Shown here one piece after another: positions 41,335-61,559 of a DNA stretch of 64,000 bases. Below the pieces are notes generated by a model. That model had not been told where the DNA came from. It did no database searches and saw nothing but the letters and a program-made list of their open reading frames with translations. The position numbers and the translations under genes were made by a program. The stretch is from Candidatus Limnocylindrales bacterium (GTDB lineage Bacteria > Moduliflexota > Moduliflexia > Moduliflexales > JAUQPW01). The stretch is from positions 132,475-196,474 of the forward strand of contig DATMBG010000037.1 in NCBI GenBank assembly GCA_035559535.1, given 5' to 3'. Each line of letters begins with the position of its first letter. Position 1 is the first letter of the stretch.

Positions 41335-42711
41335 TCAAGCAGAAATTCCATACTGCTTCATCTTTCGGTAGAGGGAATCTCGAGAAATTCCCAAAATCTC
41401 AGCCGCCCTGGATTTATTCCCTTCAGCTATTCGCAAGGCCTGCTCAATGGCAAACCTCTCCAGCTTCTCCAGGGAAAGGGTTGAAGCATGGTAAAGGGGA
41501 ACACCTTTCCGGCCCTCTAAGCTTTCTTCTGAAGAAGCTCCCTTTAACACAGATTTAAGATCCTGGACCGTCACACTCCTCTGGTCATCGGCTGTGGCTG
41601 CAATCCCTTCAATAATATGCTCTAACTCCCGCACGTTCCCAGGAAATGAATAATCCATCAGGAGACCGAGGGCCTCTTTTTCTAACTTTAATTTATGTCC
41701 GTACTTCTCTCCGTACTTTCTCAAAAACCTCTCCACAAGTAACGGAATATCCTCCCGCCTTTCTCGAAGAGGTGGGATCAGAATCGTCAATGTTGAAATT
41801 CGATAATACAGATCCTCACGGATCCATCGACCTTTAAGCTCTTCCACCGGACGATTAGAAGCGGATAAGATCCGTACATCTACTTCCACTTCTCGCGTCT
41901 CTCCAAGAGCCCGAACTCTTCTATCCTGAAGAACTCGAAGCAGCTTCACCTGGGCATCTTTAGGCATCTCGCTGATCTCATCTAAAAACAAAGTCCCTCC
42001 ACTGGCCGTTACAAAGAGCCCCTTATGATCGTGTAAAGCCCCGGTAAAGGCTCCCTTCTTGTATCCAAAAAGTTCGCTCTCGATCAACTCTTGGGGTAAG
42101 GCGCCACAGTTGATGGGTACAAAGGGTTTATCCCGCCTCCGACTCCGGCGATGGATCATTCTGGCCAAAACCTCCTTACCGGTACCCGTCTCTCCAACGA
42201 GTAACACCGGAACATCGGACCGAGAAGCTGCAACCACCTTTTCCATAACCCCTCGCATGGCCCTTGAGGTTGCTATGGGTTCCTCAAACCCCGAAGCACC
42301 ATCCAGCAGATCCTGAAGTTGGACCACTTTCTTCTTCAGCTCGTACATCTCCATGGCCCGACCCACCTTCTTCAAGATCATATCCTCATCGAAGGGTTTC
42401 AAAATGTAGTCATCAGCTCCTCGCTTGATGGCTTCCACAGCGGTCTGGATGGTTCCATAGCCGGTCATGATAATGACAGTGATGTCGGAATCTACTTCTT
42501 TGATCCTCTCCATGAGGGTAATCCCATCCAGCAGAGGCATCATCAGATCCACAAGGGCCAGGCCGATATCCTCCTGACCCTTGAGAGTCTCAAGGGCTTC
42601 GTTCCCGGATAGAGCTACCAGGGTCATGTAACCGTGGTTTTCGAAGAGGAGGGAGAGGGTGAGGGCCATTTCTTTGTTGTCATCGACGATTAAAATTTTA
42701 GGAGAGTTCAT
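41335..42711 (-). CDS. Sigma-54-dependent response regulator (NtrC family: receiver + AAA+ + Fis-type HTH)
   Basis: Receiver ILIVDDN..ALVDLMMP. Sigma-54 interaction domain with Walker A GETGTGKE, GAFTGA loop (GYKKGAFTGA) and Walker B LFLDEISEM. C-terminal HTH AAEILGISRDSLYRKMK. Confidence 0.9.
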   Translation of the reverse strand: MNSPKILIVDDNKEMALTLSLLFENHGYMTLVALSGNEALETLKGQEDIGLALVDLMMPLLDGITLMERIKEVDSDITVIIMTGYGTIQTAVEAIKRGADDYILKPFDEDMILKKVGRAMEMYELKKKVVQLQDLLDGASGFEEPIATSRAMRGVMEKVVAASRSDVPVLLVGETGTGKEVLARMIHRRSRRRDKPFVPINCGALPQELIESELFGYKKGAFTGALHDHKGLFVTASGGTLFLDEISEMPKDAQVKLLRVLQDRRVRALGETREVEVDVRILSASNRPVEELKGRWIREDLYYRISTLTILIPPLRERREDIPLLVERFLRKYGEKYGHKLKLEKEALGLLMDYSFPGNVRELEHIIEGIAATADDQRSVTVQDLKSVLKGASSEESLEGRKGVPLYHASTLSLEKLERFAIEQALRIAEGNKSRAAEILGISRDSLYRKMKQYGISA

Positions 42712-44760: not shown

Positions 44761-45435
44761 ATGTTAAGCTGGTTACCGGAGAATATTTCCACTTACGGAG
44801 GGGATATTGATTCCCTTATGTATCACATCTATTACATCACGGGCGTATGGTTTTTCTTAACTTATGGGGTGATTATTGTTTTTTTGCTCCGATATCGTCG
44901 CCAAGAGGGTCAGAAGGCAGCCTACGTCCGGGGGGATAGTCTGACGCAGGCCGGCTGGCTACTTGTTCCTCTCTTGATCGTACTGGCTCTGGATCTGTGG
45001 ATTGATTTTCAGGGTTCGGAGGTTTGGGCCAAGATCAAGATTGATGCGCCGTCCAGCGACCTGCTGGTAGGAGTCACCGGGAAGCAGTTCAATTGGGAGA
45101 TCGCGTATCCAGGACCAGATGGAAAATTAGGAACGGCAGATGATCTTGAGATGGAGAACGAACTGCATGTTCCGGTGAATAAGGTTGTACACGTGGTCCT
45201 CAGGTCAAAAGACGTCATTCATAGTTTCTTTCTCCCGAATCTTCGCCTCAAGCAGGATGTGATGCCGGGACGAACTATTGAAGCCTGGTTTGAGGCAACA
45301 AAGCCAGGTCGTTATCCCCTGCCTTGCGCCGAACTATGTGGTTTTGGACATTCCGGTATGGAAGGTTCTTTAATTGTGCATTCTCTCGATGAATATGAGA
45401 AATGGGTACAGAAAAACTGGCCCCATAAACCCTGA
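44761..45435 (+). CDS. coxB: Cytochrome c oxidase subunit II (CuA centre)
   Basis: Two N-terminal TM helices and a cupredoxin domain with the CuA ligands H..C.ELCG.GHS.M (HSFF..CAELCGFGHSGM). There is no cytochrome c domain, so this is an aa3-type oxidase. Confidence 0.85.
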   Translation: MLSWLPENISTYGGDIDSLMYHIYYITGVWFFLTYGVIIVFLLRYRRQEGQKAAYVRGDSLTQAGWLLVPLLIVLALDLWIDFQGSEVWAKIKIDAPSSDLLVGVTGKQFNWEIAYPGPDGKLGTADDLEMENELHVPVNKVVHVVLRSKDVIHSFFLPNLRLKQDVMPGRTIEAWFEATKPGRYPLPCAELCGFGHSGMEGSLIVHSLDEYEKWVQKNWPHKP

Positions 45436-45501
45436 TGTATGAGGAGGCCAAGGGCAGAGACGCCTACTTGCTCTCTGCTTTTTGCTTCTAGGAGGTGATC
45501 C

Positions 45502-47241
45502 ATGAGTAATATTCTTGGGGATGTTACGCAAGGAACTTATCATGAGGAAAAGGGTTTCTGGCGTACGTATGTCTTTTCCACTGACCATAAGGTCATTGCC
45601 AAGCAGTATCTCGCTTTAAGCTTATTCTGGGCGGTCCTGGGTGGGTTTGCAGCATATCTGATCCGTTGGCAGCTCGCTTATCCTGAAACGGCGGCACCTG
45701 GGGCCAGTTGGATCCCGGAACCCTTCATGTATGAAGGAGTTGTTCCGCCCGAATTTTACAATGTGCTCATCACCATGCATGGGACGATTATGGTCTTTTT
45801 CGTAGCCATGCCCCTCCTCCTGGCGGTCTTCGGGAACTATCTTATCCCTCTGATGATTGGAGCTCGGGATATGGCCTTTCCCCGGCTCAACATGCTTTCT
45901 GTTTGGGTCTTTACCCTTGCGTCGCTGGTGTTGTTGATTTCTCTCTTTGTACCAGGAGGGGCTGCATCTGCAGGCTGGACCGGGTATCCACCCCTCTCTG
46001 CCAAGGCAATCTACACAGGTGTAAACTGGGGCATGAACCTCTGGATTGTGGCCATTGCCCTAGAGTTTGCCGCCTTCCTTATGGGAGGAATTAACTTTCT
46101 GACTACAACCCTCAATATGCGGGCACCTGGAATGACCCTCTTCCGTTTACCCCTCATCGTTTGGATGCAAATAACCGCAGGTGTTGTCTTCATGCTCTCT
46201 GTGGGACCCTTGATAGCTGGAGCTGTGATGCTTCTGCTAGATCGCGTGATAGGGACAACCTTTTATGTTCCGGAAGGTGGTGGACAACCTCTCCTGTGGC
46301 AACATCTGTTCTGGTTCTTCGGCCATCCAGAAGTTTATGTCATTCTTCTGCCTGCCCTTGGAATTATTCTGGAGATCTTACCTGTCTTCAGCCGAAAGCC
46401 GATTTTCGGTTATCGCCCAATTATCTACTCCACAATTGTGGCTGGCATCCTCAGCTTCATCGTCTGGGCACACCATCAATATGTAAGTGGTATAGACCCC
46501 CGACTTGCCATGCCTTTCAGCATTACTACCATTCTTATCTCTGTTCCCTTTGCCCTTATTGTATTTGCCCTGATCGCCACTCTGTGGAAAGGATCAATTA
46601 GCTTCCCAACCCCCATGCTCTTCGCCCTTGGTACTTTAGGAGTGTTTCTTATCGGAGGCTTAACGGGTATTTTTGTGGGTTCAGCACCTGTAGACATTTA
46701 CTTCCATGATACCTACTTCGTCGTAGCCCATTTCCATTATACCCTTTTCAGTGCCGTGTTCTTTGGTGGATTTGCCGGACTCTACTTCTGGTTTCCAAAG
46801 ATGTTTGGACGGATGATGAACGAGACACTGGGAAAAATCCACTTCGTGCTAACCTTTATTCTCTTCAACACCACCTTCTTCCCCATGTTCTTCCTGGGTA
46901 TTGGAGGGATGATGCGACGGATTGCGAACCCGATGCAGTATGAGTTCTTGCAGCCGTTGCAACCCATCAACGTGTTCATCACCGGTTCTGCGATTCTTCT
47001 CCTGATTAGTCAGGGAATCTTCGCAATCAACTTCTTCTGGAGTCTGTTTCGTGGGAGAATAGCCGGACCAAATCCATGGCAGGCAAATACTTTAGAATGG
47101 AGTACCTCATCGCCACCACCCCACGAAAATTTCCATAAAATACCGACGGTCTACCGGGGTCCTTATGAGTATAGCTTACCTGAGACCGCCGAAGACTGGC
47201 TCCCCCAGAATCAACCTGAACTAGAGGAGGTAAAAAAATGA
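45502..47241 (+). CDS. ctaD: Cytochrome c oxidase subunit I
   Basis: Heme-copper oxidase signature with 12 TM helices (WFFGHPEVYILILP, the HH pair in HHMF/YVVAHFHY). Length 579 aa. Confidence 0.95.
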   Translation: MSNILGDVTQGTYHEEKGFWRTYVFSTDHKVIAKQYLALSLFWAVLGGFAAYLIRWQLAYPETAAPGASWIPEPFMYEGVVPPEFYNVLITMHGTIMVFFVAMPLLLAVFGNYLIPLMIGARDMAFPRLNMLSVWVFTLASLVLLISLFVPGGAASAGWTGYPPLSAKAIYTGVNWGMNLWIVAIALEFAAFLMGGINFLTTTLNMRAPGMTLFRLPLIVWMQITAGVVFMLSVGPLIAGAVMLLLDRVIGTTFYVPEGGGQPLLWQHLFWFFGHPEVYVILLPALGIILEILPVFSRKPIFGYRPIIYSTIVAGILSFIVWAHHQYVSGIDPRLAMPFSITTILISVPFALIVFALIATLWKGSISFPTPMLFALGTLGVFLIGGLTGIFVGSAPVDIYFHDTYFVVAHFHYTLFSAVFFGGFAGLYFWFPKMFGRMMNETLGKIHFVLTFILFNTTFFPMFFLGIGGMMRRIANPMQYEFLQPLQPINVFITGSAILLLISQGIFAINFFWSLFRGRIAGPNPWQANTLEWSTSSPPPHENFHKIPTVYRGPYEYSLPETAEDWLPQNQPELEEVKK

Positions 47242-47831
47242 AAGATGCTCTTAACATGAAAATAGAATCCATGACCTTAACCGGTACCGGTATCCCCAGT
47301 GGAAAGGCAGGAGTATGGTGTTTTCTCGCCTCAGAGATTACAGTCTTTGGAGGGTTGATCGGTTCCTACCTCGTAGTTCGTCTTGGTAGTGGAGGATGGC
47401 CAGAAGCGGCAGCACATCTGAGCTTTTCCCTTGCCTTATTCAACACGCTGGTCCTCCTTACCAGTAGTATGACCATGGTGTTAGCCTTTGATGCCGTGGA
47501 AAAGGGGGACTCCAAAAAACTTCGAACCTTTCTATTTCTTACTATCCTCCTGGGCCTGGTTTTTTTAGGCGTTAAAGCTTTTGAATATGCCGGTAAACTC
47601 GCCCATGGCTTTACGCCGGGTACCGGAGTCTTCTGGTCCTTTTACTATGGGATGACCGGCCTCCACGCTCTTCATGTCCTGGCCGGGGTCATCGTCAATA
47701 TTATTCTTTTTATGGAGGCCCTTGGAAATGCCCTAAAACCAAATGAGCATCGTGTGGAACTGGCCGGTTTATACTGGCATTTTGTCGATATAGTCTGGAT
47801 CTTCCTCTTTCCACTTCTTTACCTAACTTGA
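47238..47831 (+). CDS. ctaE: Cytochrome c oxidase subunit III
   Basis: A 4-bp overlap with ctaD, about 5 TM helices and the conserved YWHFVDIVWIFLFPLLYL C-terminus. Confidence 0.85.
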   Translation: MKDALNMKIESMTLTGTGIPSGKAGVWCFLASEITVFGGLIGSYLVVRLGSGGWPEAAAHLSFSLALFNTLVLLTSSMTMVLAFDAVEKGDSKKLRTFLFLTILLGLVFLGVKAFEYAGKLAHGFTPGTGVFWSFYYGMTGLHALHVLAGVIVNIILFMEALGNALKPNEHRVELAGLYWHFVDIVWIFLFPLLYLT

Positions 47832-49592: not shown

Positions 49593-49848
49593 TCATTAAG
49601 TTTCTGAAATTCATCAAACTTTTGAAAAAGAGATGCATTTCCGGTACCATTCTTCTCTCCTTCGTCATAGATAGAAGGTTTCCTGCAATAACATTTACCT
49701 ACAGAGTCTGATATCCTTTCTATTGGATAGAATGGGGTTCCCCAGGTCTCCCTTTTTAGGATTCCTTGGCTAATTTAGAGATTCTTCTTTTAACTAAACT
49801 TCGGTTACCGTTCTTTTTCTCTTATTAAGATCAAATTGCAGGTAGGTT

Positions 49849-49946
49849 AATTTTGTCTTGATTTTTAGCATTATCTGAACATCCTATCCCTATAAAGTCT
49901 TCCCTCTATTTGAAGAATTTTTGTCTTGATTTTTGACATTGTCTAA
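49849..49946. promoter_or_regulatory. Two about 31-bp direct repeats (AATTTTGTCTTGATTTTTRRCATTRTCTRA) about 35 nt apart upstream of the usp gene
   Basis: Repeat 1 is at 49849-49879 and repeat 2 at 49916-49946. Repeat 2 contains TTGACA. They lie 340-440 bp upstream of the usp start, in a 700-bp non-coding region. Confidence 0.5.
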
Positions 49947-50288
49947 TAAGCCAGCAGATATTGGAATTTTGCTGATACCGTAAGATTTTAGGACAAACAA
50001 GCCCGCTCTTATTTTCCTGTAGGGATCTGTGATGCTATCCACCTTCCTTTACCCGGGACTTATAACCCTCCGGGTAGCAGCAGGATCTTCATAATTGGAG
50101 GTTTTGGCACAGGTATTGCGGTATCTCCTTGGCAGTTAGGGAAGATCCATAAAAACACGTTTGACGAATAGGGAAGGATTCGTTTAGGGCGAACAAAACC
50201 AGCGTAAATTAGTAAAGAATTCAAGAGAGGATATAGAGAGAGAAGTTGCAATCCACAATCCTCGATCTCGAATTTAAGGAGGAAAGGT

Positions 50289-51230
50289 ATGTATCGATCT
50301 ATTCTTGTACCCCTCGATGGCTCGACATTCGCAGAATACGCACTGCCTGTAGCGCGAAGCATTGCGCGTCGGGCAGGTGCAACACTCCAACTGGCACGGG
50401 TGCATGTGCCCATCCCGGCAAGATACGTAGAAGGTATGGTCATCTTCGATAAGGAACTCGAAGCCCGGAATCGGGAGCATGAACAAGCCTACCTGGCTGA
50501 AGTGGTCAAACGTCTGGCAACCGATTCGGAAGTTCCTGTTACTTCTGTATTACTGGATGGGGAGATTGGGAAGATCTCTGAGGTACTCAATGACCATGTA
50601 AGGGCTATAGGCGCAGATCTCATAGTGATGTCAACTCACGGGCGAGGAGCTCTATCTCGCTTTTGGCTTGGAAGTGTGGCAGATAAGCTGGTGCGGCAAG
50701 GGTTAGTACCTATCTTGTTGGTACGGCCCTTAGAAGAGAAGGAAGATGGTCCAGATCTTGCCCATGAACCGGTCTTCCAACACATATTGATTCCCCTTGA
50801 TGGATCGGCGTTGTCCGAGCAAATCCTGGAACCCGCAGTAGCACTGGGTAAACTGATGCAGGCCGATTATACCTTGTTACGAGTCTTGGAGCCCTGGATG
50901 CCTATCGGTTATCCACCTACTGAATACTCCATCAGGCTGGACCACCAGTTGCAAGAGCAATTGCAGAGAGAGGCCGAAGAGTATCTGGAAGGGGTAGCTG
51001 GACGGTTGAGGGCCCAATCGCTTCAAGTCCAGGTAAGAGTGGTTTTCAGCCGATTTGCATCCACAGCCATCCTTGAGGAGGCAGGTAAGCAGGGAATTGA
51101 TCTGATTGCCATGGAGACACACGGGTGGGGAGGTTTAACACGGTTGCTTATAGGCAGCGTCGCCGATAAGGTGCTACGAGGTGCTTCCGTACCAATACTG
51201 TTACAACGTCCCCACGGAGAAACCCCGTGA
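50289..51230 (+). CDS. Universal stress protein, tandem UspA domains
   Basis: Two about 150-aa Usp domains, each starting ILVPLDGS and ending GSVADKV(L)R...VPILLV with the ATP-binding G-x2-G-x9-G(S/T)-like motifs ([40 protein letters not shown]). Confidence 0.8.
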
Positions 51231-51498: not shown

Positions 51499-51514
51499 TG
51501 GCACCTCAATTGCT
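51499..51514 (+). promoter_or_regulatory. Sigma-54 (RpoN) promoter: TGGCAC-N5-TTGCT
   Basis: Exact -24 GG (TGGCAC at 51499-51504) and -12 GC (TTGC at 51510-51513) with the canonical 5-nt spacing, about 115 nt upstream of the AMP-ligase start at 51631. Confidence 0.6.
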
Positions 51515-51630: not shown

Positions 51631-53418
51631 ATGAAAGCGAAAGGAAGCCCTGTGAATTGGAAACCGATCAAGAAATTTCCAAATACCTGGACTGTTAAGC
51701 CAAATCTCTTGGACTATGACAAAACCTATGCTACCTTTTCCTGGGAAGAGGTACGTCGGGAACTTGACGGCTTGCCAGATGGCAAAGGTCTGAACATAGC
51801 CCATGAGGCTATTGACCGACACGCCACTGGTCCAAGACGTGATCACCTGGCCATCCGATGGTTAAGTAGGGAGGGGTCAGTCCGCGACTTTACTTATGGA
51901 GATCTCAGGGAGCAGAGTAATCGTTTTGCCAACGTGCTTAGGGGACTGGGTGTGGGGAAGGGTGATCGGGTATTTGTCCTGGCTGGCCGCATTCCCAGCC
52001 TTTACATTGCTGCGCTTGGTTCCCTAAAGAACACCAGCGTCTTCTGTCCTTTGTTTTCTGCCTTTGGTCCGGAGCCTATCTTCCAGCGGCTGAGCAGAGG
52101 AGATGCCAAAGTTTTGGTGACTACCGAACGGTTGTATCGGCAGAAAGTTGCCGACATGCGGGAGCGCCTACCGCAATTACAACATGTATTGTTGGCAGAT
52201 ATAGACGAAGATATAAACCCGGGTACCTGGTCCCTACCGAAACGGCTGAAGGAAGCAGCCAGTGAGTTTACAATCCCTCCGACGGATCCAGAGGATATGG
52301 CACTTTTACATTTTACCAGCGGTACCACCGGAATGCCTAAGGGAGCCATTCATGTACATGAGGCTGTGTTAACCCATTATGTGACCGGAAAGTATGTATT
52401 GGACTTCCATCCCGAGGATATCTTCTGGTGTACAGCCGACCCTGGATGGGTAACCGGTACTTCCTATGGGATCATTGCGCCTCTGGTCCACGGTATTACC
52501 AACCTTATTGATGAAGCCGATTTTGATGCAACCCGTTGGTATCGCATCCTGGAAGAGCAAAGGGTAACCATATGGTATACAGCTCCCACAGCGATTCGTA
52601 GGTTGATGCGTATGGAGATCGAGCCACGCCAGCAGTACGACCTGAGTCATTTGCGGCTCATTCATAGTGTTGGTGAACCACTTAATCCCGAAGCAGTTGT
52701 TTGGGGCGAGCAGGTACTGGGGCTACCGATTCATGATAACTGGTGGCAGACCGAAACCGGTGGGATCATGATCGCCAACTTTCCTTCCATGGAGATCCGA
52801 CCCGGCTCGATGGGACGCCCCTTGCCTGGGATCGAAGCAGCTATCGTCCGACGGATAAATGAGGATAAAGATGAGGTAGAAGTAGTGAAGGAGCCTCATG
52901 TCGAAGGAGAGCTGGCGCTTAAGCCCGGTTGGCCTTCCATGTTCCGGGGATATCTTCATGAGGAGAAGCGCTACCAGAAGTGCTTTGTAGGGGGTTGGTA
53001 CCTTACCGGTGACCTGGCCAGACGTGATGAAGATGGTTACTTTTGGTTTATAGGACGGGCTGATGATATCATTAAAACCTCTGGACACATGGTGGGTCCG
53101 TTCGAAGTAGAGAGTGTGCTAATGGAGCATCCAACTGTGGCTGAAGCAGCTGTAATCGGCAAACCTGAGCCATTGATCGGCGAGCTGGTCAAAGCCTTTG
53201 TTTCTCTTAAACCTGGCATAGAACCTAGCGAGAAACTTCGTCTGGAACTTCTAGGTTTCGCCCGTTCCAGGTTGGGGTCAGCAGTAGCACCTAAAGAAAT
53301 CGAATTTCAAGCCAATCTGCCCAGGACCCGCAGTGGTAAGATTATGCGCCGGTTGCTTAAGGCGCGCGAGCTGGGGTTACCGGAGGGCGATATATCCACT
53401 TTGGAGACAAGTGAATGA
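51631..53418 (+). CDS. AMP-forming acyl-CoA/acetyl-CoA synthetase (short ACS-like, ANL superfamily)
   Basis: AMP-binding motif [16 protein letters not shown] and the adenylation core (YGxTE-like [28 protein letters not shown], the C-terminal [11 protein letters not shown] Lys motif). Length 595 aa. Confidence 0.8.
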
Positions 53419-54449
53419 GTCCAGAAACCATCATAAAGCCAACGAATACAGAGACAATACCCTCACAGAGGATAGTCCCTATCAGTCGTGAACATGCCCT
53501 GCATCTGCTATACCAGATGATTCGGATTCGGCGTTTTGAAGCAAAGTCGGCTGAATTGTATGGGGCCATGAAGATCCGTGGTTTCCTGCACCTGTACGAT
53601 GGTGAGGAGGCGGTGGCCGTGGGGGTGATGGAAGCTCTCAGACCTGAAGATGCCGTCGTGGCCACCTATCGGGAACATGGTCATGCCCTGGCACGGGGGA
53701 TTCCTGCGGGTGCGATTATGGCAGAGATGTATGGTAAACAGGAGGGTTGCAGTCGGGGTCGGGGGGGGTCCATGCACCTCTTTGATGCTAAGACGCGTTT
53801 CTATGGAGGTAATGCCATTGTTGGTGGCGGTTTGCCCCTCGCAGTAGGATTGGCTCTGGCAGACAAGATGCAGGGTAAGCGACGTGTAACCTGTTGCTTC
53901 TTTGGAGATGGTGCTGTTGCCGAAGGGGAATTCCATGAATCCATGAATCTTGCGGCTCTCTGGCAGCTTCCGGTTTTATTTATTTGTGAGAATAATCTAT
54001 ACGCCATGGGAACTGCCTTGCAATTATCTCAGTCCATTACGGATCTAGCCAAGAAGGCAGCCGGCTATGCCGTGGCTGCTGAAGCTGTGGATGGGATGGA
54101 TGTACTGGCTGTAGAGGTAGCAGCCAAAAAAGCAGTTGAGATCGTGCGAGCCGGCGAAGGGCCCTATTTTCTAGAGTGTCGGACCTACCGTTTCCGAGGT
54201 CATTCGGCGTTTGATACAGAGTTATATCGGACTAAAGCTGAGGTTGAGGAATGGAAGAAACGGGACCCCATTAAGACCTTCATCGAGTATCTTAAAAACC
54301 AGGGGCTTGTCAGTGAGATGGACTTAAATGAGCTGGAACGGAAAGTAGCCGACGAAATTAAAGAAGCTGTAGACTTTGCAGAAGCGGGGACTTGGGAACC
54401 TGTAGAAGATCTGACACGCTTTGTTTACTCAGAACGGAGGGAGGTATGA
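53415..54449 (+). CDS. 2-oxoacid (pyruvate/acetoin) dehydrogenase E1 component alpha subunit (TPP-binding)
   Basis: The TPP motif [31 protein letters not shown] and the phosphorylation-loop-like region YRFRGHS are present. A 4-bp overlap with the AMP-ligase stop. Confidence 0.85.
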
Positions 54450-55441
54450 AGGAAAATCCACAGATGATCCGACTGACTTATCGAGAAGCAGTACGGGAAG
54501 CGATCCGGGAGGCCTTACGCAAGGACGATCGGGTGTTTTTGATGGGTGAGGATGTTGGCCGCTATGGTGGCTGTTTTGCCGTCAGCAAAGGTTTACTCCA
54601 GGAGTTCGGTCCGGAGCGTATCCGTGATACTCCGTTGTCGGAATCAGCTTTTGTCGGTGCCGGGATAGGTGCTGCGATGGGCGGCATGCGCCCTATTGTG
54701 GAGATCATGACGGTGAATTTCAGTCTCCTGGCTGCCGATCAAATCCTCAACAACGCCGCTACGATTCTTCACATGTCGGGCGGTCAGTTTAACATTCCAC
54801 TGGTCATTCGAATGGCAACCGGTGGGGGTCGACAAGTAGCAGCCCAACATTCCCACAGTCTGGAAGGTTGGTATGCCCATATCCCGGGGATCAAAGTGTT
54901 AACTCCGGCAACGCTGGAAGATGCCCGGGGTATGCTTTGGACTGCCCTTGAGGATCCAGATCCCGTGCTGATCTTTGAAAATTCCAACCTCTACAATATG
55001 GAAGGTCAGCTACCTGCCGATGCAGGTCCGGTGGATATCCACCGGGCCCGTGTGCGGAGGCCAGGGAGTGATGTAACGATCATTACCTATAGTGCAAGCC
55101 TCTTCAAAGCCCTGGATGCGGCAGAAATTCTGGCAAGGGAAGGGATTGATGCTGAAGTTATTGATCTGCGCACGCTACGCCCTTTAGACCAGGAAACCTT
55201 TTTGGCCTCAGTGACCAAGACTCACCGTGCAGTGATCGTGGACGAAGGCTGGCGCAGTGGGAGCATCTCGGCTGAGATCGCCGCACGTATCATGGAGGGT
55301 GCTTTCTACGAGTTAGACGCTCCAGTTGAACGCATTTGTAGTGCAGAGGTTCCCATGCCTTATGCCAAACATCTGGAGCAGGCGGCATTACCCCAAACCG
55401 AGACCATTGTAGCAACGATTAAAAGAATGATGCATTCCTGA
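54446..55441 (+). CDS. 2-oxoacid dehydrogenase E1 component beta subunit
   Basis: Transketolase-like pyrimidine-binding and C-terminal domains ([33 protein letters not shown]). ATG at 54446 overlaps the E1 alpha stop (ATGA) and is preceded by ggaggg. Confidence 0.85.
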
Positions 55442-55514
55442 GTGGTGAATTCAGACTTTAGAATAACAAGTCAGATCGCTCATCATTCAGCAGGCATCGT
55501 TCATCATTGGCAAG

Positions 55515-56753
55515 ATGGCTGAGTTTCGTATGCCCAGTTTGGGTGCTGATATGAAAGCAGGTACTTTGGTTGCCTGGAGGGTCAAACCCGGTGATCGCGT
55601 CAAGCGTGGTGATATCATCGCCGAAGTAGAGACAGAAAAAGGGCTTGTTGAAGTGGAGGTCTTCGAAGAGGGTGTGGTGGATCAGATTTTCGTTCAGCCT
55701 GGGGAGAAAGTTCCTGTGGAGACGGTGCTGGCCATGATTCGTCCTGAGGGAATGCCGGCGGTATCTGCCCCCGCAGAGGTCCCACAAGCAGCAGTAAAAG
55801 AGCATGTTCCAGCGGAGGCAGGACCGGAGGTAAAACCAGGCCTCGAAGTCTCGCACCTGCCGGGTCAACCCCCGCAGAGACGTATCCGGGTTTCGCCCCT
55901 GGCCCGCAAATTGGCGGCTGAGCTTGGAATTGATCTGAGTACCGTGCAGGGAACAGGTCCTATGGGAGCCATCGAGCGAGCCGATGTTGAGCGTGCCGCA
56001 GCGAAAAGACTCGCAGAAAAAGCTCCCACACCATCAGTTTCGGAGAAACCTGGACCACCTACTATGGAAAAGCCTGCCGTCACCGAGTTCCAGATTGGTA
56101 TGCGACGAGCCATCGCCGCAGCCATGTCTCGCTCCAATCGCGAGATCCCTCATTATTACTTAGAGACCCGTATCGATATGAGTCGTGCCCTCCGATGGTT
56201 AGAAGCGGAAAATCAAAGGCGCTCCATCAAGGAGCGACTCTTACCTGCTGTATTGCTGATCAAGGCAGTAGCACGGGCATTAGGGGAAGTACCTGAACTC
56301 AATGGTTATTGGATCGATGACCGCCTTCAACCTCAGGAAGCGATACACATTGGCTTTGCCATCTCGCTCCGGCAAGGCGGATTGGTTGTGCCCGCCATTC
56401 ACCATGTAGACTTGAAGAGTTTAGATGAACTGATGGAGGCACTGCGAGATCTGATTACGCGAGTACGGGCCGGTCGTCTGCGTAGTCCTGAAATGACCGA
56501 TGCAACCATTACTATAACGAATCTGGGCGACCTGGGTGTCGAGAAGGTCTTTGGAGTCATCTATCCACCCCAGGTGGCACTGGTAGGCTTTGGCAAAATC
56601 ACAGAGCAGCCCTGGGCAGAGAATGGTATGATCGGAATCCGACCGGTTCTGACAGCAACCCTGGCGGCAGATCATCGTGCCACCGATGGGCACCAGGGAG
56701 GTCGGTTCCTGGAAGCCCTCAACCGTCACCTGCAGGAGGCAGCCAAGTTATGA
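55515..56753 (+). CDS. Dihydrolipoamide acyltransferase E2 component (lipoyl domain + E3-binding domain + catalytic domain)
   Basis: N-terminal lipoyl domain with the ETEKG lysine, an Ala/Pro-rich linker, a PSBD ([25 protein letters not shown]) and a catalytic domain with the DHRATDG active-site His. Confidence 0.85.
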
Positions 56754-56995
56754 CCGAAGCACAGATTAAGGAGACTATCTTTAAGGTCCTGGGACGGATC
56801 GCCCCGGAAGCCCAGTTGGATAAACTTGCACCTAATGACAACCTCCGAGAAACATTGGACATTGACTCCTTCGATTACCTCCAGTTCCTTATCGGTCTCA
56901 ATGAGGAACTGGGCGTGGAGATCCCAGAAGCAGACTACGGACAGTTGACTACCCTGGCCGATCTTATCCGTTACCTTTCGGCTCGTGTCCGTTGA
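56750..56995 (+). CDS. Acyl carrier protein-like (phosphopantetheine-binding), translationally coupled to E2
   Basis: 81 aa with a four-helix ACP-like pattern and a candidate 4'-phosphopantetheine Ser in [11 protein letters not shown]. The start overlaps the E2 stop by 4 nt. Confidence 0.55.
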
Positions 56996-57101
56996 CGCTT
57001 CAGGGAAAAAGTTTAAGGAATCATCTTTATAAGATGTCTCGTCGATTCGAAAAGTCAACCTCTAAGAAATGATCCTGATTTTTAGGAAAGGAGCCTATAA
57101 C

Positions 57102-58274
57102 ATGAAATTACTGATCAGGGATGAACTCAAGATCCTCCTGGAAGAACATGAAAAACCCTGTCTATCAATTTTTATGCCTATGTACCGGACCGGAGCTGAA
57201 ATTCAACAAAATCCCGTCCGATTTAAGAATATGCTTCGGGAAGCCGAAGAACGTCTGATCACAAGTGGTCAGGAAGAACAAGATGTTAAAGAACTCCTGG
57301 ATCCGGTCCAGGAGTTGTTGAAGGAGGATGATTTTTGGCAACATCCCCTCAATGGGTTGGCGGTATACCGCTCTCCAGACTTCTTTCGTTACTATCGCCT
57401 TCCCTTTGATCTTCAAGAGCTGATAATCATTGCCGATCACTTTTATATCAAACCACTTCTCCCTATATTCTATGCTGAAAAGCGATTCTATATATTGGCT
57501 CTTAGCCAGAACCAAGTCAAGTTGTTTCAAGCCACCCGTTATAGTATCAATGAGGTCGAATTAAAAGGTATCCCTCAAAGTCTTGCCGAAGCTCTTAAAT
57601 ATGAATATCCTGAAAAGCAACCTCAATTCCGTACCAGTGCACCAGGAGGGAAACAACACCCAGGTCCGCGACGAGCAGCTGTTTTTTATGCTTATGGAGT
57701 AGATATCGATGATGCTAAAGGTCGGATCCTACGCTATTTTCGGGAGATTGACGCAGGATTGCATGGATTGTTTAGGGATGAACAAGTACCCCTCATACTG
57801 GCAAGCGTTGAGTATCTATTTCCGATTTACCGAGAAGCAAATACCTATCCTTATCTGATGGAGAAAGGAATCCCCGGAAACCCCGAGTTGCTGAGTGCAG
57901 AAGAATTACATAAGCAAGCCTGGGCTATTGCACAGCCTTATTTTCAGAAGGCACAAGAGGAAGCTGCAGCCCGGTACCGGGAGTTGGCAGGGAGTGGCCG
58001 GGTTTCCAATAACATTAGAGAGATCATCCCGGCTGCCCACTATGGACGGGTCGAATCCTTGTTTGTTGCTGCGGGCTATCAACAATGGGGGACCTTTGAT
58101 CCGGATACCAATCGGATTGATCTACACCAGAGTGCTGAACCGGGAGATGAGGATCTACTGGATTTAGCAGTTATTCAAACCCTTCTGCATGGTGGAAGCG
58201 TTTATACCGTTAGTCTGGAAGAAATGCCTGATGGGCAAAAGCGGGAACCGTTAGCTGCTATATTTCGCTATTAA
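57102..58274 (+). CDS. Hypothetical protein, probable baeRF (bacterial-archaeal eRF1-like) family
   Basis: ATG at 57102 preceded by aggaaaggag. The N-terminus (LEEHEKPCLSIFMPMYRTG) resembles baeRF/Rv2629-like proteins, and the C-terminus (LLDLAVIQTLLHGGSVYTV) resembles the eRF1/Pelota domain 3. The family call is from memory only. Confidence 0.45.
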   Translation: MKLLIRDELKILLEEHEKPCLSIFMPMYRTGAEIQQNPVRFKNMLREAEERLITSGQEEQDVKELLDPVQELLKEDDFWQHPLNGLAVYRSPDFFRYYRLPFDLQELIIIADHFYIKPLLPIFYAEKRFYILALSQNQVKLFQATRYSINEVELKGIPQSLAEALKYEYPEKQPQFRTSAPGGKQHPGPRRAAVFYAYGVDIDDAKGRILRYFREIDAGLHGLFRDEQVPLILASVEYLFPIYREANTYPYLMEKGIPGNPELLSAEELHKQAWAIAQPYFQKAQEEAAARYRELAGSGRVSNNIREIIPAAHYGRVESLFVAAGYQQWGTFDPDTNRIDLHQSAEPGDEDLLDLAVIQTLLHGGSVYTVSLEEMPDGQKREPLAAIFRY

Positions 58275-58296: not shown

Positions 58297-58740
58297 TCAA
58301 CTTTCTTTTAATTTAATGAGTAACCAATCCCGAGAGCGACCTTTTATACGTACCAATACATAGGGACCCTTTAACTTTTGACCCTGTAAGGTGAACTTGA
58401 GTTGGTCCGGCCCGGCTTTCTCCAGCGAATAGGTTCCTTGATCCCAGATATGGACCATCCCTGCTCCATACAGACCTTCAGGGATAACCCCTTCAAAATT
58501 AATATAATCTACGGGATGGTCCTCTACTTGCACGGCCAGGCGACGTATGCCGGGTTTTTGGGGTGGACCCTTGGGCACGGCCCAACTCCGCAGTACCCCT
58601 GCCATCTCCAGTCGGAAGTCATAGTGTAAGTGACTGGCCTGATGCTCCTGCACAACGAAGCGGTGCTGTTTGTTATCCAGCCTCATACTCCAGGGCTTTG
58701 GTGATTTCACAGAATTTTGTTTTGGATGATAGGTTGCCAA
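58297..58740 (-). CDS. Stand-alone DNA ligase D 3'-phosphoesterase (LigD-PE) domain protein
   Basis: FVVQEHQASHLHYDFRLE..GVLRSWAVPKGPP..GKPYVLVRIKG, the diagnostic LigD PE-domain motifs. Only 147 aa, with no ligase or polymerase domains. Confidence 0.75.
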   Translation of the reverse strand: MATYHPKQNSVKSPKPWSMRLDNKQHRFVVQEHQASHLHYDFRLEMAGVLRSWAVPKGPPQKPGIRRLAVQVEDHPVDYINFEGVIPEGLYGAGMVHIWDQGTYSLEKAGPDQLKFTLQGQKLKGPYVLVRIKGRSRDWLLIKLKES

Positions 58741-58769: not shown

Positions 58770-61205
58770 CTACGGTTTCTGAATCTCTTTTGACCCGCGT
58801 CCTAACTCTTCTTCCAGTTTCAAGACATTTAGTGTAGTCTTTAGGACACTGTCCGGATTCAAGCTTATGGAGTCAATACCAAGCCGTACCAGGTATTCTG
58901 CCATTTCTGGATAGTCCGAAGGGGCCTGACCGCAAATACCTGAATGGCGATGGTTTCGATGTGCTCCTTCTACGGTCTGACGTATCATCTCCTTGACTCC
59001 GGGGTCCCGTTCATCAAAATCGAAAGCTACGATCTCCGAATCGCGGTCCACACCTAAAACAAGCTGGGTTAGATCATTAGAGCCAATGGAGAAACCATCA
59101 AAGATACGAGAAAAGGCATCGATCTGAATTACATTGTTGGGGATCTCGCACATCACATAGATTTCAAGACCGTTCTCGCCCTGCCTTAATCCATACCCGG
59201 CCATGGCCTGGAGTACTTTCTCTCCTTCTTCTACCCGGCGACAGAAAGGTATCATGAGTTTTACATTGGTTAATCCCATTTCTTCGCGTACCCGACGCAT
59301 AGCGGCGCACTCCAAGGCAAAACCTTCGGCATAAGCAGGATGAGCGTAGCGTGAAGCACCCCGGAAGCCAAGCATAGGATTGGCTTCCACAGGCTCGAAG
59401 TATTTACCTCCCAGGAGACGGGCATACTCGTTGGTCTTGAAATCAGACATGCGTACAATTACAGGCTTTGGGTAAAAGGCGGCTGCGATAGTCCCTACCC
59501 CTTCGGAGAGTTTTTCCACAAAGAAATCGGCCGGTTTAGTATGGTGCCGGGTGAGGGCTTCCAACTCTGCACGCTCCTTGGGATCTTCGACCTTCTCCGG
59601 GTATAACAAAGCCATGGGATGGGCCTTGATGTACTCGCTGATAATGAACTCCATACGAGCCAGTCCTACCCCATCATTGGGAAGGAAGCTGGTCTCAAAA
59701 GCTGTTTCTGGATTGCCGATATTAATCATGATCTTGGTAACCGGTCGTCTGAGTTGGCTGAGGTCAATTCTGTGCACCTCAAAGGGGAGGCTACCTTCAT
59801 AGACCTTGCCTATGTCCCCTTCTGCGCAGGAAACCGTGACGGTACTACCACTCTTGATTCGTTCGGTAGCTCCACCTGCTCCTACCACAGCTGGAATCCC
59901 TAACTCCCGAGCAACAATGGCAGCATGACAGGTACGACCTCCCCGGTTGGTAACAATAGCCGACGCTTTCTTCATCACCGGCCCCCAATCTGGGGTAGTG
60001 GTATCAGCAACCAAAACTTCTCCTTCCTTAAATTCTCGAAGATGGGATACATTGGAGATTACATGAGCTATCCCGGTGGCAATCTTAGTCCCTACCGAAC
60101 GACCGGTAACTAAAACTGGACCTCTGCTCTTTAGCTCATACTCCTCAAGGATATGCCCTTTTTTCTGTGAAGCCACCGTCTCAGGTCGGGCCTGTACCAA
60201 ATAAAGTTTTCCATCCAGGCCATCCTTAGCCCATTCCATATCCATAGGCATTTCATGTCCTGCCTTGGTGCTGTAGTGCTGCTCTACCTGGATGGCATAG
60301 TCTGCCAGGGTTAATACCTCTTCATCGTTGATGCAGAAACGCTCCCGGTCTGCACGAGGGGTGGGGATATTCCGCGTTGCTTCCCGGGTCCCTCCTTCTG
60401 CATAAATCATTTTGATCTGCTTCTCTCCCAGGTTTCGGCGCAATACCGCGCGATATCCTTTCTTGAAGGTAGGTTTATGGACATACCACTCATCCGGGTC
60501 CAACGCACCCTGCACTACGTTCTCACCAAGACCATAAGCGCCTGTAATGAATACCACATCCCGAAAACCGGACTCTGTATCCAGGGAGAACATAACCCCA
60601 CTGGCAGCCAAATCTGAACGCACCATTTTCATGATACCGATGGATAGAGCAACCTTGAAATGATCGAAACCATGGTTGATCCGATAATGAATGGCACGGT
60701 TGGTAAAGAGACTTGCAAAGCAGCGTCGACAGGCATCTAAAAGTACTGCGTCCCCTTTGATATGAAGGTAAGTCTCATGTTGCCCGGCAAAACTGGCTGT
60801 GGGCAGGTCTTCGGCAGTAGCCGAACTACGTACCGCTACGGTCATCTCTGGATCATATTCTTCCTGGAGCCGATGATAAGCAGTAAGAATCTCGTCCCGC
60901 AGATCCTCCGGAAGGCCAGCTCCGTAAATAATATCCCGAGCCTGCTTACCTCGATGTGCCAGATCTTGGATATTCTTGGGGTCCAGGCTTTCCAGGATAT
61001 TTCGTAATTGATTCCAGGCTTTAGCGCTATCCAGGATATAACGATAGGCATCGGCCGTAATAGCAAAACCATTGGGTACCAGCACCCCTTTTGGAGTCAG
61101 TTCCCGGTACATCTCCCCTAAAGAAGCGTTTTTACCCCCGACAAGGGGTATATCGCTCAGACTTATTTCCCGGAAAAAGCGAATATATTTAAATGACTTA
61201 GACAT
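58770..61205 (-). CDS. ppsA: Phosphoenolpyruvate synthase (pyruvate, water dikinase)
   Basis: 811 aa with an N-terminal ATP-grasp, a central phosphohistidine domain (GGRTCHAAIVARELGIPAVVG) and a C-terminal PEP-utilising TIM barrel. Confidence 0.9.
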   Translation of the reverse strand: MSKSFKYIRFFREISLSDIPLVGGKNASLGEMYRELTPKGVLVPNGFAITADAYRYILDSAKAWNQLRNILESLDPKNIQDLAHRGKQARDIIYGAGLPEDLRDEILTAYHRLQEEYDPEMTVAVRSSATAEDLPTASFAGQHETYLHIKGDAVLLDACRRCFASLFTNRAIHYRINHGFDHFKVALSIGIMKMVRSDLAASGVMFSLDTESGFRDVVFITGAYGLGENVVQGALDPDEWYVHKPTFKKGYRAVLRRNLGEKQIKMIYAEGGTREATRNIPTPRADRERFCINDEEVLTLADYAIQVEQHYSTKAGHEMPMDMEWAKDGLDGKLYLVQARPETVASQKKGHILEEYELKSRGPVLVTGRSVGTKIATGIAHVISNVSHLREFKEGEVLVADTTTPDWGPVMKKASAIVTNRGGRTCHAAIVARELGIPAVVGAGGATERIKSGSTVTVSCAEGDIGKVYEGSLPFEVHRIDLSQLRRPVTKIMINIGNPETAFETSFLPNDGVGLARMEFIISEYIKAHPMALLYPEKVEDPKERAELEALTRHHTKPADFFVEKLSEGVGTIAAAFYPKPVIVRMSDFKTNEYARLLGGKYFEPVEANPMLGFRGASRYAHPAYAEGFALECAAMRRVREEMGLTNVKLMIPFCRRVEEGEKVLQAMAGYGLRQGENGLEIYVMCEIPNNVIQIDAFSRIFDGFSIGSNDLTQLVLGVDRDSEIVAFDFDERDPGVKEMIRQTVEGAHRNHRHSGICGQAPSDYPEMAEYLVRLGIDSISLNPDSVLKTTLNVLKLEEELGRGSKEIQKP

Positions 61206-61559
61206 CTTAATTTAATCCTTCCTACGGAGAGTGGGGGATGTGAAGTCACTATCTCATCCCTCACCACAGGATTTGAAAATTCCTCCTTTTTCGTTATTTC
61301 TGCTTCCCAAGTCTTTTAATTTCTTTTACAATAAGTATGCCAAACCGTTTTTCGATTTCTAGGCTGTGGAGTTTCTAACAGAGAGACCCAGAGAAGGATT
61401 TGACAAAAAACAGGAGACTTCAAATAATCCTGCTGAAAAAACTTGTCAGGAACTTCCTCACGAAATAAATAATCTAAAAAGAGCGATGGGAGTTGAGGCA
61501 AGCCTTTCGTTGAGCGTTCAAACTATTTTAGTCAAAGCCATTTTGCGGAGAGGTGATTC

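Follow-up and report, generated by a model that had tools for sequence, protein, structure and literature searches.

Closest described systems

The 2-oxoacid dehydrogenase complexes are textbook coenzyme A (CoA)-dependent machines. Among them, the pyruvate dehydrogenase (PDH) complexes with a heterotetrameric E1 (PdhA/B/C/D) are those of Gram-positive bacteria and mitochondria. Here, we describe an operon that couples genes of this type to an acyl carrier protein (ACP). The operon was analyzed in a window of 64,000 nucleotides from Candidatus Limnocylindrales bacterium (assembly GCA_035559535.1, contig DATMBG010000037.1, positions 132,475 to 196,474 of the forward strand; the coordinates given below are those of the window unless a related locus is named). 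It encodes, in this order, an AMP-forming acetate ligase, E1 alpha, E1 beta, an E2 dihydrolipoyl acyltransferase and an ACP.

The operon resembles heterotetrameric-E1 PDH in its E1 equivalogs, in the domains of its E2 and in the catalytic Thr, His and Asp, and among solved structures its closest relative is human PDH E1 alpha. In contrast to these complexes, however, the operon contains no E3 (lipoamide dehydrogenase) gene in 166 related loci, its E2 falls below the equivalog cutoffs, and it adds an ACP gene coupled to the E2 gene as well as a leading acetate ligase gene. A similar architecture is known from the biosynthesis of quinocarcin (Qnc) and scleric acid (Scl), where E1 alpha-like, E1 beta-like and lipoyl-E2-like proteins are likewise found with a free-standing ACP, which receives a C2 acyl group, the glycolicacyl unit from a ketose phosphate donor (PMC6335953). 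Compared by description only, these systems differ from the operon in several respects. They are located in nonribosomal peptide synthetase (NRPS) clusters together with a phosphopantetheinyl transferase (PPTase), whereas the operon is found in a stress or dormancy context with no NRPS, polyketide synthase (PKS) or PPTase gene nearby. In addition, the E1 of the operon is of the PDH type, an acetate ligase is added and the E2 possesses a subunit-binding domain.

The ligase belongs to the same family as SaAcs1 of Syntrophus aciditrophicus, which was proposed to form ATP from acetyl-thioester, AMP and pyrophosphate (PPi) when energy is limiting; SaAcs1 uses acetyl-CoA, and its bias was put down to G196/T197 in the CoA-binding loop (PMC13404658). 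Relative to SaAcs1, the ligases of the operon are of a short type without the loop insertion and differ at the position of Arg526, and the direction of their reaction is one that we infer. Finally, the islands that harbor the operon resemble those of the lxa AckA-Pta, DosR and OsdR systems, with which they share universal stress proteins (USPs), HSP20, alcohol dehydrogenases, nitroreductase and nicotinate phosphoribosyltransferase (NAPRTase), as well as a step from acetyl-thioester to acetate and ATP. The operon differs from lxa and the OsdR regulon in that it represents an alternative module, carried by further members of these genera (Burkholderia savannae and Streptomyces fungicidicus).

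We found no prior description of the five-gene unit, or of PDH-to-ACP transfer in primary metabolism, in a full-text collection with few subscription journals. The only mention that we found concerns the E1/E2 genes of a Desulfotalea plasmid (DPPB38-40), which are listed as a putative cold-shock PDH; neither the ACP nor the ligase is included (PMC4224046). Our results suggest that the operon represents an undescribed form of carrier-protein-dependent acetyl handling for survival without oxygen. If true, this would add to primary acetyl metabolism a carrier-protein branch for which two natural-product pathways are so far the only known examples. Being widespread, plasmid-mobile and located in islands that are switched on for survival without oxygen, the operon may be a general and as yet unnoticed component of the dormancy physiology of bacteria from soil, sediment and wastewater and of bacteria related to pathogens. 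Cultured carriers exist, and the idea is therefore directly testable.

A conserved and mobile five-gene unit

All five genes of the operon lie on the plus strand. The first encodes an AcsA-type AMP-forming acetate ligase of 595 aa (51631..53418; NCBIfam NF003313). It is followed by the genes of a PDH-type E1 alpha of 344 aa (53415..54449; TIGR03182), an E1 beta of 331 aa (54446..55441; NF006667, with Transket_pyr and Transketolase_C domains), an E2 dihydrolipoyl acyltransferase of 412 aa (55515..56753; Biotin_lipoyl, E3_binding and 2-oxoacid_dh domains) and a dedicated ACP of 81 aa with a predicted phosphopantetheine site at Ser40 (56750..56995; PF00550). The start of E1 beta was set at the ATG at 54446, which is preceded by GGAGG, although the program-made list of open reading frames (ORFs) began this frame at a TTG at 54392. 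Reading the sequence directly, we observed that the stop codon of the ligase gene and the start codon of E1 alpha have a common ATGA (53415-53418, 4 bp). The same arrangement is found between E1 alpha and E1 beta (54446-54449, with the GGAGG 5' of it) and between E2 and the ACP (56750-56753, again a 4-bp overlap), and the spacer between E1 beta and E2 is 73 nt long in the window. The tight packing of five genes described in the first-pass annotation is thus confirmed, both in the positions of the ORFs and in the three ATGA overlaps. Overlaps of 4-8 bp were the predominant class across the related loci: -4 was found in 34 of 57 loci for the ligase/E1 alpha junction, in 40 of 61 for E1 alpha/E1 beta and in 55 of 82 for E2/ACP, and -8 was found in 51 of 71 for E1 beta/E2.

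A scan seeded with the ACP, using one genome per species, recovered at least 251 species representatives, a lower bound given by a scan that relied on two exact peptide patterns. The best 80 ACP-seeded loci belong to Chloroflexota, Acidobacteriota, Verrucomicrobiota, Desulfobacterota, Nitrospirota, Cyanobacteria, Planctomycetota, Eremiobacterota, Bacteroidota and Pseudomonadota. Using tblastn, we found the order ligase, E1 alpha, E1 beta, E2 and ACP on one strand in every ACP-seeded locus with enough upstream DNA. This arrangement is far beyond chance: the same five genes stand in the same order in every such locus. Relative to the proteins of the window, the ligase was 66-81% identical, E1 beta 72-88% and E2 54-71%, and the ACP was 60-80% identical across phyla. 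The first-pass annotation had called for a check of co-occurrence across genomes, and the ACP proved inseparable from the operon: in metagenome contigs seeded with the E2, it was present in all 76 loci with room downstream, and the ligase was present in all 25 loci with more than 4.2 kb upstream. Even ACP relatives of 45-51% identity were still located 3' of an E2 of the cassette type or within similar islands. The five genes constitute an obligate unit, which is found without change in hundreds of species from more than ten bacterial phyla.

Decayed copies of the operon were also observed. In loci L005 (6401-10246) and L006, the ligase is reduced to a C-terminal fragment of 109 aa, E1 beta and the lipoyl domain are fused in one chain of 523 aa, and the catalytic domain of E2 is in two pieces; the ACP ORF is intact. 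Another candidate, the 143-aa protein P0330, was rejected as a functional fusion: it consists of the N-terminus of E1 beta, the C-terminus of E2 and a complete ACP, and is apparently the remnant of a deletion.

The operon is horizontally mobile and moves alone, without consumer genes. One carrier is the large conjugative plasmid of Desulfotalea psychrophila LSv54 (NC_006139, 37566-43895; locus L170), where it is followed by a lipoate-protein ligase gene and flanked by RnlAB/RelE toxin-antitoxin and traI/traJ genes. This carrier is a strict anaerobe. A protein search among plasmids identified further plasmid or chromid carriers in Cupriavidus, Burkholderia, Paraburkholderia, Ralstonia, Azospirillum, Methylocystis, Sinorhizobium, Leisingera, Rhodococcus and Streptomyces. 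In the window, the G+C content of the operon (52001-56000) is the highest observed (0.515-0.531, relative to about 0.46 overall and 0.43-0.49 in the flanks), which is compatible with horizontal acquisition. The annotation pipeline PGAP labels the genes as acsA, pdhA, 'alpha-ketoacid dehydrogenase subunit beta', 'dihydrolipoamide acetyltransferase family protein' and 'acyl carrier protein'. This separate naming of the parts by annotation pipelines, with the ACP assigned to 'fatty acid biosynthetic process', conceals the five-gene unit.

Proposed acetyl transfer and the carrier protein

Because the ACP travels only with the four enzymes, across phyla and on plasmids, and without any consumer, its partners probably lie inside the operon. 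The most economical reading would be one in which the acyl group is handed to this ACP or primed from it. We propose an ACP-tethered acetyl relay that would lead under anoxia from pyruvate through acetyl-S-ACP to acetate and ATP, and we estimate its probability at roughly 35%. E1 would decarboxylate pyruvate and acetylate the lipoyl arm of E2, and E2 would transfer it to the phosphopantetheine thiol on the ACP translated with it, in place of free CoA or in addition to it. The ligase would then act on the tethered acetyl, in the likeliest direction converting acetyl-S-ACP, AMP and PPi into acetate, ATP and holo-ACP. The net reaction would yield acetate, CO2, reducing equivalents and ATP from pyruvate and would leave the CoA pool untouched. 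Re-oxidation of the dihydrolipoyl-E2 would fall to a housekeeping E3 from another part of the genome, and NADH would be disposed of by host means, for example by the Hox hydrogenase that is found beside the operon in some lineages. The acetyl cargo of the ACP, the enzymes that load and unload it and the direction of the flux are those that we infer.

There are precedents for the loading of an ACP by an E1/E2-like system (QncN/L/M and SclQ1-4; PMC6335953) and for an acetyl-CoA synthetase (ACS) of the AMP-forming type running towards ATP (Syntrophus; PMC13404658). The ATP-forming direction appears the most attractive because of the low-oxygen context, the analogy with the ackA-pta genes of lxa and the ATP-forming ACS of Syntrophus. 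The same direction is favored by the neighbors PpsA, malic enzyme and Hox hydrogenase, which concern pyruvate, AMP or reducing equivalents. Going further, the operon could encode an autonomous, CoA-independent energy module in which the ligase is bound to E2, providing ATP at the substrate level in anoxic dormancy and spreading by plasmids. We regard this extension as doubtful; if true, it would supply substrate-level ATP to otherwise aerobic bacteria of many phyla and to some anaerobes.

The 81-aa ORF presents the properties of a genuine ACP, as the first-pass annotation had supposed. It scored 38.4 bits against the Pfam PP-binding model PF00550 (gathering score 20.8), and it remained below all NCBIfam ACP equivalog cutoffs (best 41.5 relative to 70), which places it in no named ACP subfamily. 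More than 1000 clusters match the family, the best 120 of them all being at least 70% identical. The alignment of the family contains the invariant residues L36-D37-I38-D39-S40, D42 and P59-E60-x-D62-Y63-G64, and the strict pattern LDIDS(F/Y)D, which reads LDIDSFD around Ser40 in the window, was found in 148-149 of 161 ACP copies. The AlphaFold2 model (mean pLDDT of 93.4) contains four helices, with helix II (40-54) beginning at Ser40, and matched solved ACPs of the fatty acid synthase (FAS) type and of mitochondria with Foldseek TM scores of 0.75-0.89. Synonymous sites were saturated among 100 orthologues (median pS of 0.75, with a pN of 0.26), and dN/dS was about 0.27 across the 378 unsaturated pairs, a pattern that indicates purifying selection on the ACP gene. 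In two loci of Desulfobacterota, a second ACP paralogue, 40-44% identical to the ACP of the window, is encoded near the ACP of the cassette (L039, 10375-10611; L016, 3079-3321, minus strand).

Both E1 subunits match PDH equivalogs. E1 alpha scored 462 bits against TIGR03182 (cutoff 394) and matched human PDH E1 alpha with 269 bits, relative to 140 for the E1 alpha of the branched-chain ketoacid dehydrogenase (BCKDH); by these scores it is assigned to the PDH type. E1 beta scored 430 bits against NF006667 (cutoff 321). In contrast, E2 fell below every NCBIfam E2 equivalog cutoff (best 261 relative to 445). The lipoyl K42 and the catalytic T335, H387 and D391 are invariant in 140 members of its clade, and E2 is predicted from these residues to be catalytically intact. 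All 140 members also present the motif DHRA(T/S)DG where human E2p has DHRVVDG, and E2 ends 27 residues past the Asp of this motif, which makes its C-terminus 2 aa shorter than that of human E2p. The lack of an E3 gene pointed out in the first-pass annotation holds in the window and beyond it: tblastn with E. coli Lpd yielded no match in the 64-kb window or in the 166 related loci (1.72 Mb), a negative that depends on the accuracy of the query sequence, and a Pfam scan found no Pyr_redox protein among the large ORFs of the window.

Some aco operons also have E1 alpha/beta and E2 genes without an E3 gene. The operon could accordingly be viewed as the acoABC acetoin dehydrogenase operon followed by an unrelated or chance small ORF, but this explanation is refuted. 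The AcoC model NF011457 covers only the lipoyl part of E2 (residues 3-162; 83.5 bits relative to 307) and E1 alpha passes the PDH equivalog, while the small ORF passes PF00550, evolves under purifying selection and is present in 76 of 76 loci. The first-pass annotation had stated that its idea would fall if the ORF failed the PP-binding models or was not conserved, or if the operon was plainly acoABC; both possibilities were checked and neither held.

The ligase is closely related to AcsA. It scored 950 bits against the acetate--CoA ligase model NF003313 (cutoff 729), and its best match in the PDB was the acetyl-CoA synthetase 9g79 (586 bits). In the numbering of SeAcs, it keeps W414 (acetate pocket), D517 (hinge), G524 (A8) and K609 (catalytic, acetylatable) in all 86 full-length copies. 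Based on these residues, the ligase is predicted to be acetate-specific and catalytically intact. However, it differs from AcsA in that Arg526, which is an Arg in three solved ACS enzymes, is replaced by Met in 104 of 104 cassette ligases (motif GHMVGP). This is the sole non-conservative clade-invariant change at positions where the three solved enzymes agree. The cassette ligases further present an extra invariant Lys/Arg two residues past the equivalent of Arg584 and an invariant Arg at position 76 of the window protein, and they always lead a PDH-ACP operon; the equivalent of R191 is variable in these ligases and is a Glu in 9g79 too. In SeAcs, R191, Arg526 and R584 are conserved and matter for the CoA/thioester half-reaction (PMC10455477). 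Arg526 touches the phosphate of the adenylate in the conformation that forms the thioester, and its replacement in the Methanothermobacter enzyme lowered kcat 130- to 326-fold (PMC10455477). The adenylation half of the enzyme therefore appears ordinary, since the pocket and catalytic residues are kept, and the thioester half appears specifically altered, since Arg526 is replaced by Met.

We also compared the evolution of the five proteins. Exploratory partial Mantel tests across 78 loci recovered the known contacts between E1 alpha and E1 beta (0.40) and between E1 beta and E2 (0.42). The ligase was correlated with E2 (0.36), a hint that it may be part of the assembly, and the ACP was correlated with E1 alpha (0.24) and, most strongly, with the ligase (0.30). 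This last correlation is consistent with another explanation, in which the ligase works as an acetate:ACP ligase and loads the ACP, in the manner of DltA for DltC or of the citrate lyase ligase for its ACP, while E2 uses CoA and acetyl-ACP serves as a donor or store of acetyl groups. ANL enzymes often load small free-standing carrier proteins, the weak NCBIfam matches of the ACP include the DltC and AsbD models, and the changes specific to the ligase cluster at the thioester half-site. Nevertheless, the ACP gene is coupled to E2 and the ligase gene lies at the opposite end of the operon, no consumer of acetyl-ACP is encoded, and the obligatory PDH genes would be left unexplained. We consider this explanation quite unlikely.

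A different cargo was also considered. Octanoyl-ACP is the donor of LipB, and the ACP, with the ligase, might serve the lipoylation of the operon's own E2 through octanoyl or lipoyl groups. A lipoate-protein ligase (LplA) gene is indeed located 3' of the ACP gene on the Desulfotalea plasmid and in locus L107. But LplA adjoins the operon in only 2 of 174 loci, no LipA, LipB or FAS genes were found nearby, and the Trp that restricts the ligase pocket to the size of acetate is present in 86 of 86 full-length copies, all of which makes such a role very improbable.

Several points weigh against the acetyl relay, above all the retained Arg584 equivalent and the lack of fusions. The Arg584 equivalent of the ligase, the contact to the 3'-phosphate of CoA, is kept in 86 of 86 copies, which fits continued use of CoA. 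The partial Mantel correlation between the ACP and E2 is weak (0.11), and the signal of the ACP at the level of domains is diffuse. A profile search with the ACP against 1.84 billion representatives yielded 715 representatives at 50% identity (E <= 1e-10), and the best 150 of these, all 43-146 aa long, included no E2-ACP or ligase-ACP fusion. In addition, the CoA site of the canonical E2 core opens inward and the access of an ACP to it is uncertain, and the ATP-forming direction, which requires PPi and a high level of AMP, has been documented in only a handful of organisms. For an AcsA homologue, the default expectation is plain acetate scavenging. Finally, a simple search found a stress-type neighbor in at least 38 of the 74 loci of at least 12 kb, that is, in about half of them.

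Part of this evidence could be accommodated by a conventional PDH and a conventional ACS, both making acetyl-CoA (from pyruvate and from acetate, respectively) for survival metabolism; the ACP would then be a subunit that serves structure or regulation, comparable to mitochondrial ACP in several complexes. The PGAP names acsA and pdhA and the passed equivalog models agree with such roles, as do the conserved Arg584 equivalent, the peripheral-subunit-binding domain retained in E2, the complex I-bound mitochondrial ACPs among the best structural matches of the ACP and the spread of its co-evolution over several partners. On the other hand, the invariant Ser motif would be needless in a purely structural role (although the partners of mitochondrial ACPs do bind acyl-pantetheine), the Arg526Met replacement argues against ordinary CoA kinetics, and E2 lies under all equivalog cutoffs and carries the clade-specific DHRA(T/S)DG. 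A purely conventional pair of enzymes thus seems improbable.

Genomic context and regulation

We identified the neighbors of the operon by clustering flanking ORFs, by Pfam scans of cluster representatives and from precomputed annotations. The most common neighbor is a USP (20 of 87 loci by clustering). Other recurrent neighbors are phosphoribosyltransferase, NAPRTase, CBS-pair proteins, HSP20, hibernation factors of the S30AE type, BON proteins, Lon-like ATPases, P-type ATPases, malic enzyme and [NiFe]-hydrogenase, and PpsA homologues flank the operon in 8 loci. This gene content corresponds to that of the mycobacterial DosR regulon. It is also similar to the OsdR regulon of Streptomyces (PMC5069765) and to the lxa locus of Burkholderia cenocepacia, which is activated at low oxygen and contains ackA and pta at the equivalent metabolic step (PMC3721108). 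Neither the lxa locus (PMC3721108) nor the S. coelicolor OsdR regulon (PMC5069765) is a described home of the operon, since neither contains it. By analogy, these results suggest that the operon is located in stress islands of the low-oxygen or dormancy type.

Regulatory features agree with this context and vary between lineages, as two plasmids of Rhodococcus and Streptomyces illustrate. On pDK1 of Rhodococcus sp. DK17, the operon adjoins a USP gene and the genes of a GAF sensor kinase and a response regulator (a DosS/DosR-like pair). On p1 of S. fungicidicus, it is surrounded by four USP genes as well as genes for an alcohol dehydrogenase, NAPRTase, HSP20 and a nitroreductase, and the divergent USP/acsA promoter contains two exact OsdR-box cores, GGGCCGTC(A/C)GGCCC. 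One of these cores has the same sequence as that of the OsdR site predicted for SCO0215 in S. coelicolor (cf. PMC5069765). The S. fungicidicus locus contains three exact cores relative to 1.2 expected, a count that is not significant, and all three are located in promoters.

A further reading, that of the first-pass annotation, is starter-unit supply. The E1/E2 enzymes, the ligase or both might make acetyl-S-ACP as a starter unit with which the host primes the synthesis of storage lipid, polyhydroxyalkanoate (PHA) or another condensation, and the operon would then be biosynthetic and not energy-yielding. Synthesis of storage lipid and PHA belongs to the DosR response, and genes of wax ester synthase/diacylglycerol acyltransferase (WS/DGAT) are located near the operon in a few loci. 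Such synthesis is likewise known in the lxa response (PMC3721108), and Qnc and Scl offer a precedent with the same E1 alpha, E1 beta, E2 and ACP architecture (PMC6335953). However, among the neighbors of the operon in 177 loci there is no recurrent ketosynthase, acyltransferase, PKS, NRPS or FAS gene, the 60-80% identity of the ACP across phyla is hard to square with differing host enzymes, and the operon moves alone on plasmids. We consider starter-unit supply unlikely. A setting in specialized lipid or polyketide biosynthesis, of which the architecture had reminded the first-pass annotation, is therefore not supported: none of the PKS, NRPS and FAS genes recur, and no AcpS/Sfp homologue (PPTase) was found in the 166 related loci, a negative that again depends on the accuracy of the query sequence.

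The first-pass annotation had further placed the operon in a central-metabolism context next to ppsA. In the window, its surroundings instead constitute a stress-type island. A USP with tandem domains (50289..51230, plus strand; Pfam Usp x2) is encoded 5' of the operon. On its 3' side, a putative ribosome hibernation factor of 401 aa, similar to baeRF and Balon (57069..58274, plus strand), matched PF18845 (167 bits) and PF18849, and scored 171 bits against NF052287 (the AOC03_06830 family hibernation factor), below the cutoff of 330. Its gene starts 73 nt past the ACP gene and may share the operon transcript, since no terminator was found between them. Next follow, on the minus strand, a free-standing LigD 3'-phosphoesterase domain of 147 aa (58297-58740; TIGR02777, 183 bits relative to 144) and PpsA, a phosphoenolpyruvate synthase identified from the ORF translation and convergent to the operon (58770..61205). 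The LigD-type protein, located between the Balon-like gene and ppsA, is devoid of ligase and polymerase domains. Elsewhere, too, the partners of the operon (HSP20, NAPRTase, CBS proteins, hibernation factors, Hox hydrogenase and DosRS/OsdR-type regulation) are those of stress islands and not of central metabolism.

In the window, the operon is preceded by a sigma-54-type -24/-12 element, TGGCACCTCAATTGC (51499..51513, plus strand), 118 nt 5' of the ATG of the ligase gene. The exact pattern TGGCAY-N5-TTGC occurs only twice in the window (0.12 expected; two occurrences were reached in 0 of 100 shuffles), both times on the plus strand: before the ligase gene and before the USP gene (50105-50119, 170 nt 5' of it). 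A third site, with one mismatch, is located 123 nt 5' of ppsA (61328-61342, minus strand). The site of the operon is kept in the close relative L007, but exact sites were found before the ligase gene in only 3 of 85 other loci, so that sigma-54 control appears to be lineage-specific and was rejected as a general feature of the operon. An NtrC-type sigma-54 activator (41335-42711, minus strand) and the adjoining PAS-rich hybrid histidine kinase (38555-41209, minus strand), encoded 9-13 kb upstream of the operon, are candidates for the control of a small stress regulon in this lineage. Scans for intrinsic terminators and sigma-70 promoters gave background levels only. The promoters of the window contained no common palindromic operator; we found only the sigma-54 elements and a direct repeat before the USP gene. 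This imperfect repeat of about 28 bp (49848-49876 and 49916-49944) is located in the intergenic region between an M50-peptidase gene and the USP gene, with the exact core TTTTGTCTTGATTTTT at 49851 and 49919, and a related sequence, TCCTGATTTTTAGGA, is found just 5' of the Balon-like gene (57072).

A set of cytochrome oxidase genes is located a few kb 5' of the stress genes (44761-47831, plus strand; COX1 at 45502-47241, 484 bits), and the organism is therefore probably respiratory. In two Nostocales genomes, the operon adjoins hoxUYH. In locus L083 (10334-14987, Nostocaceae), hoxU, hoxY and hoxH are directly 5' of the operon, and a P-type ATPase gene 3' of it is split by a TnpB of the IS605 family (OrfB_IS605 and a Cas12f1-like TNB domain).

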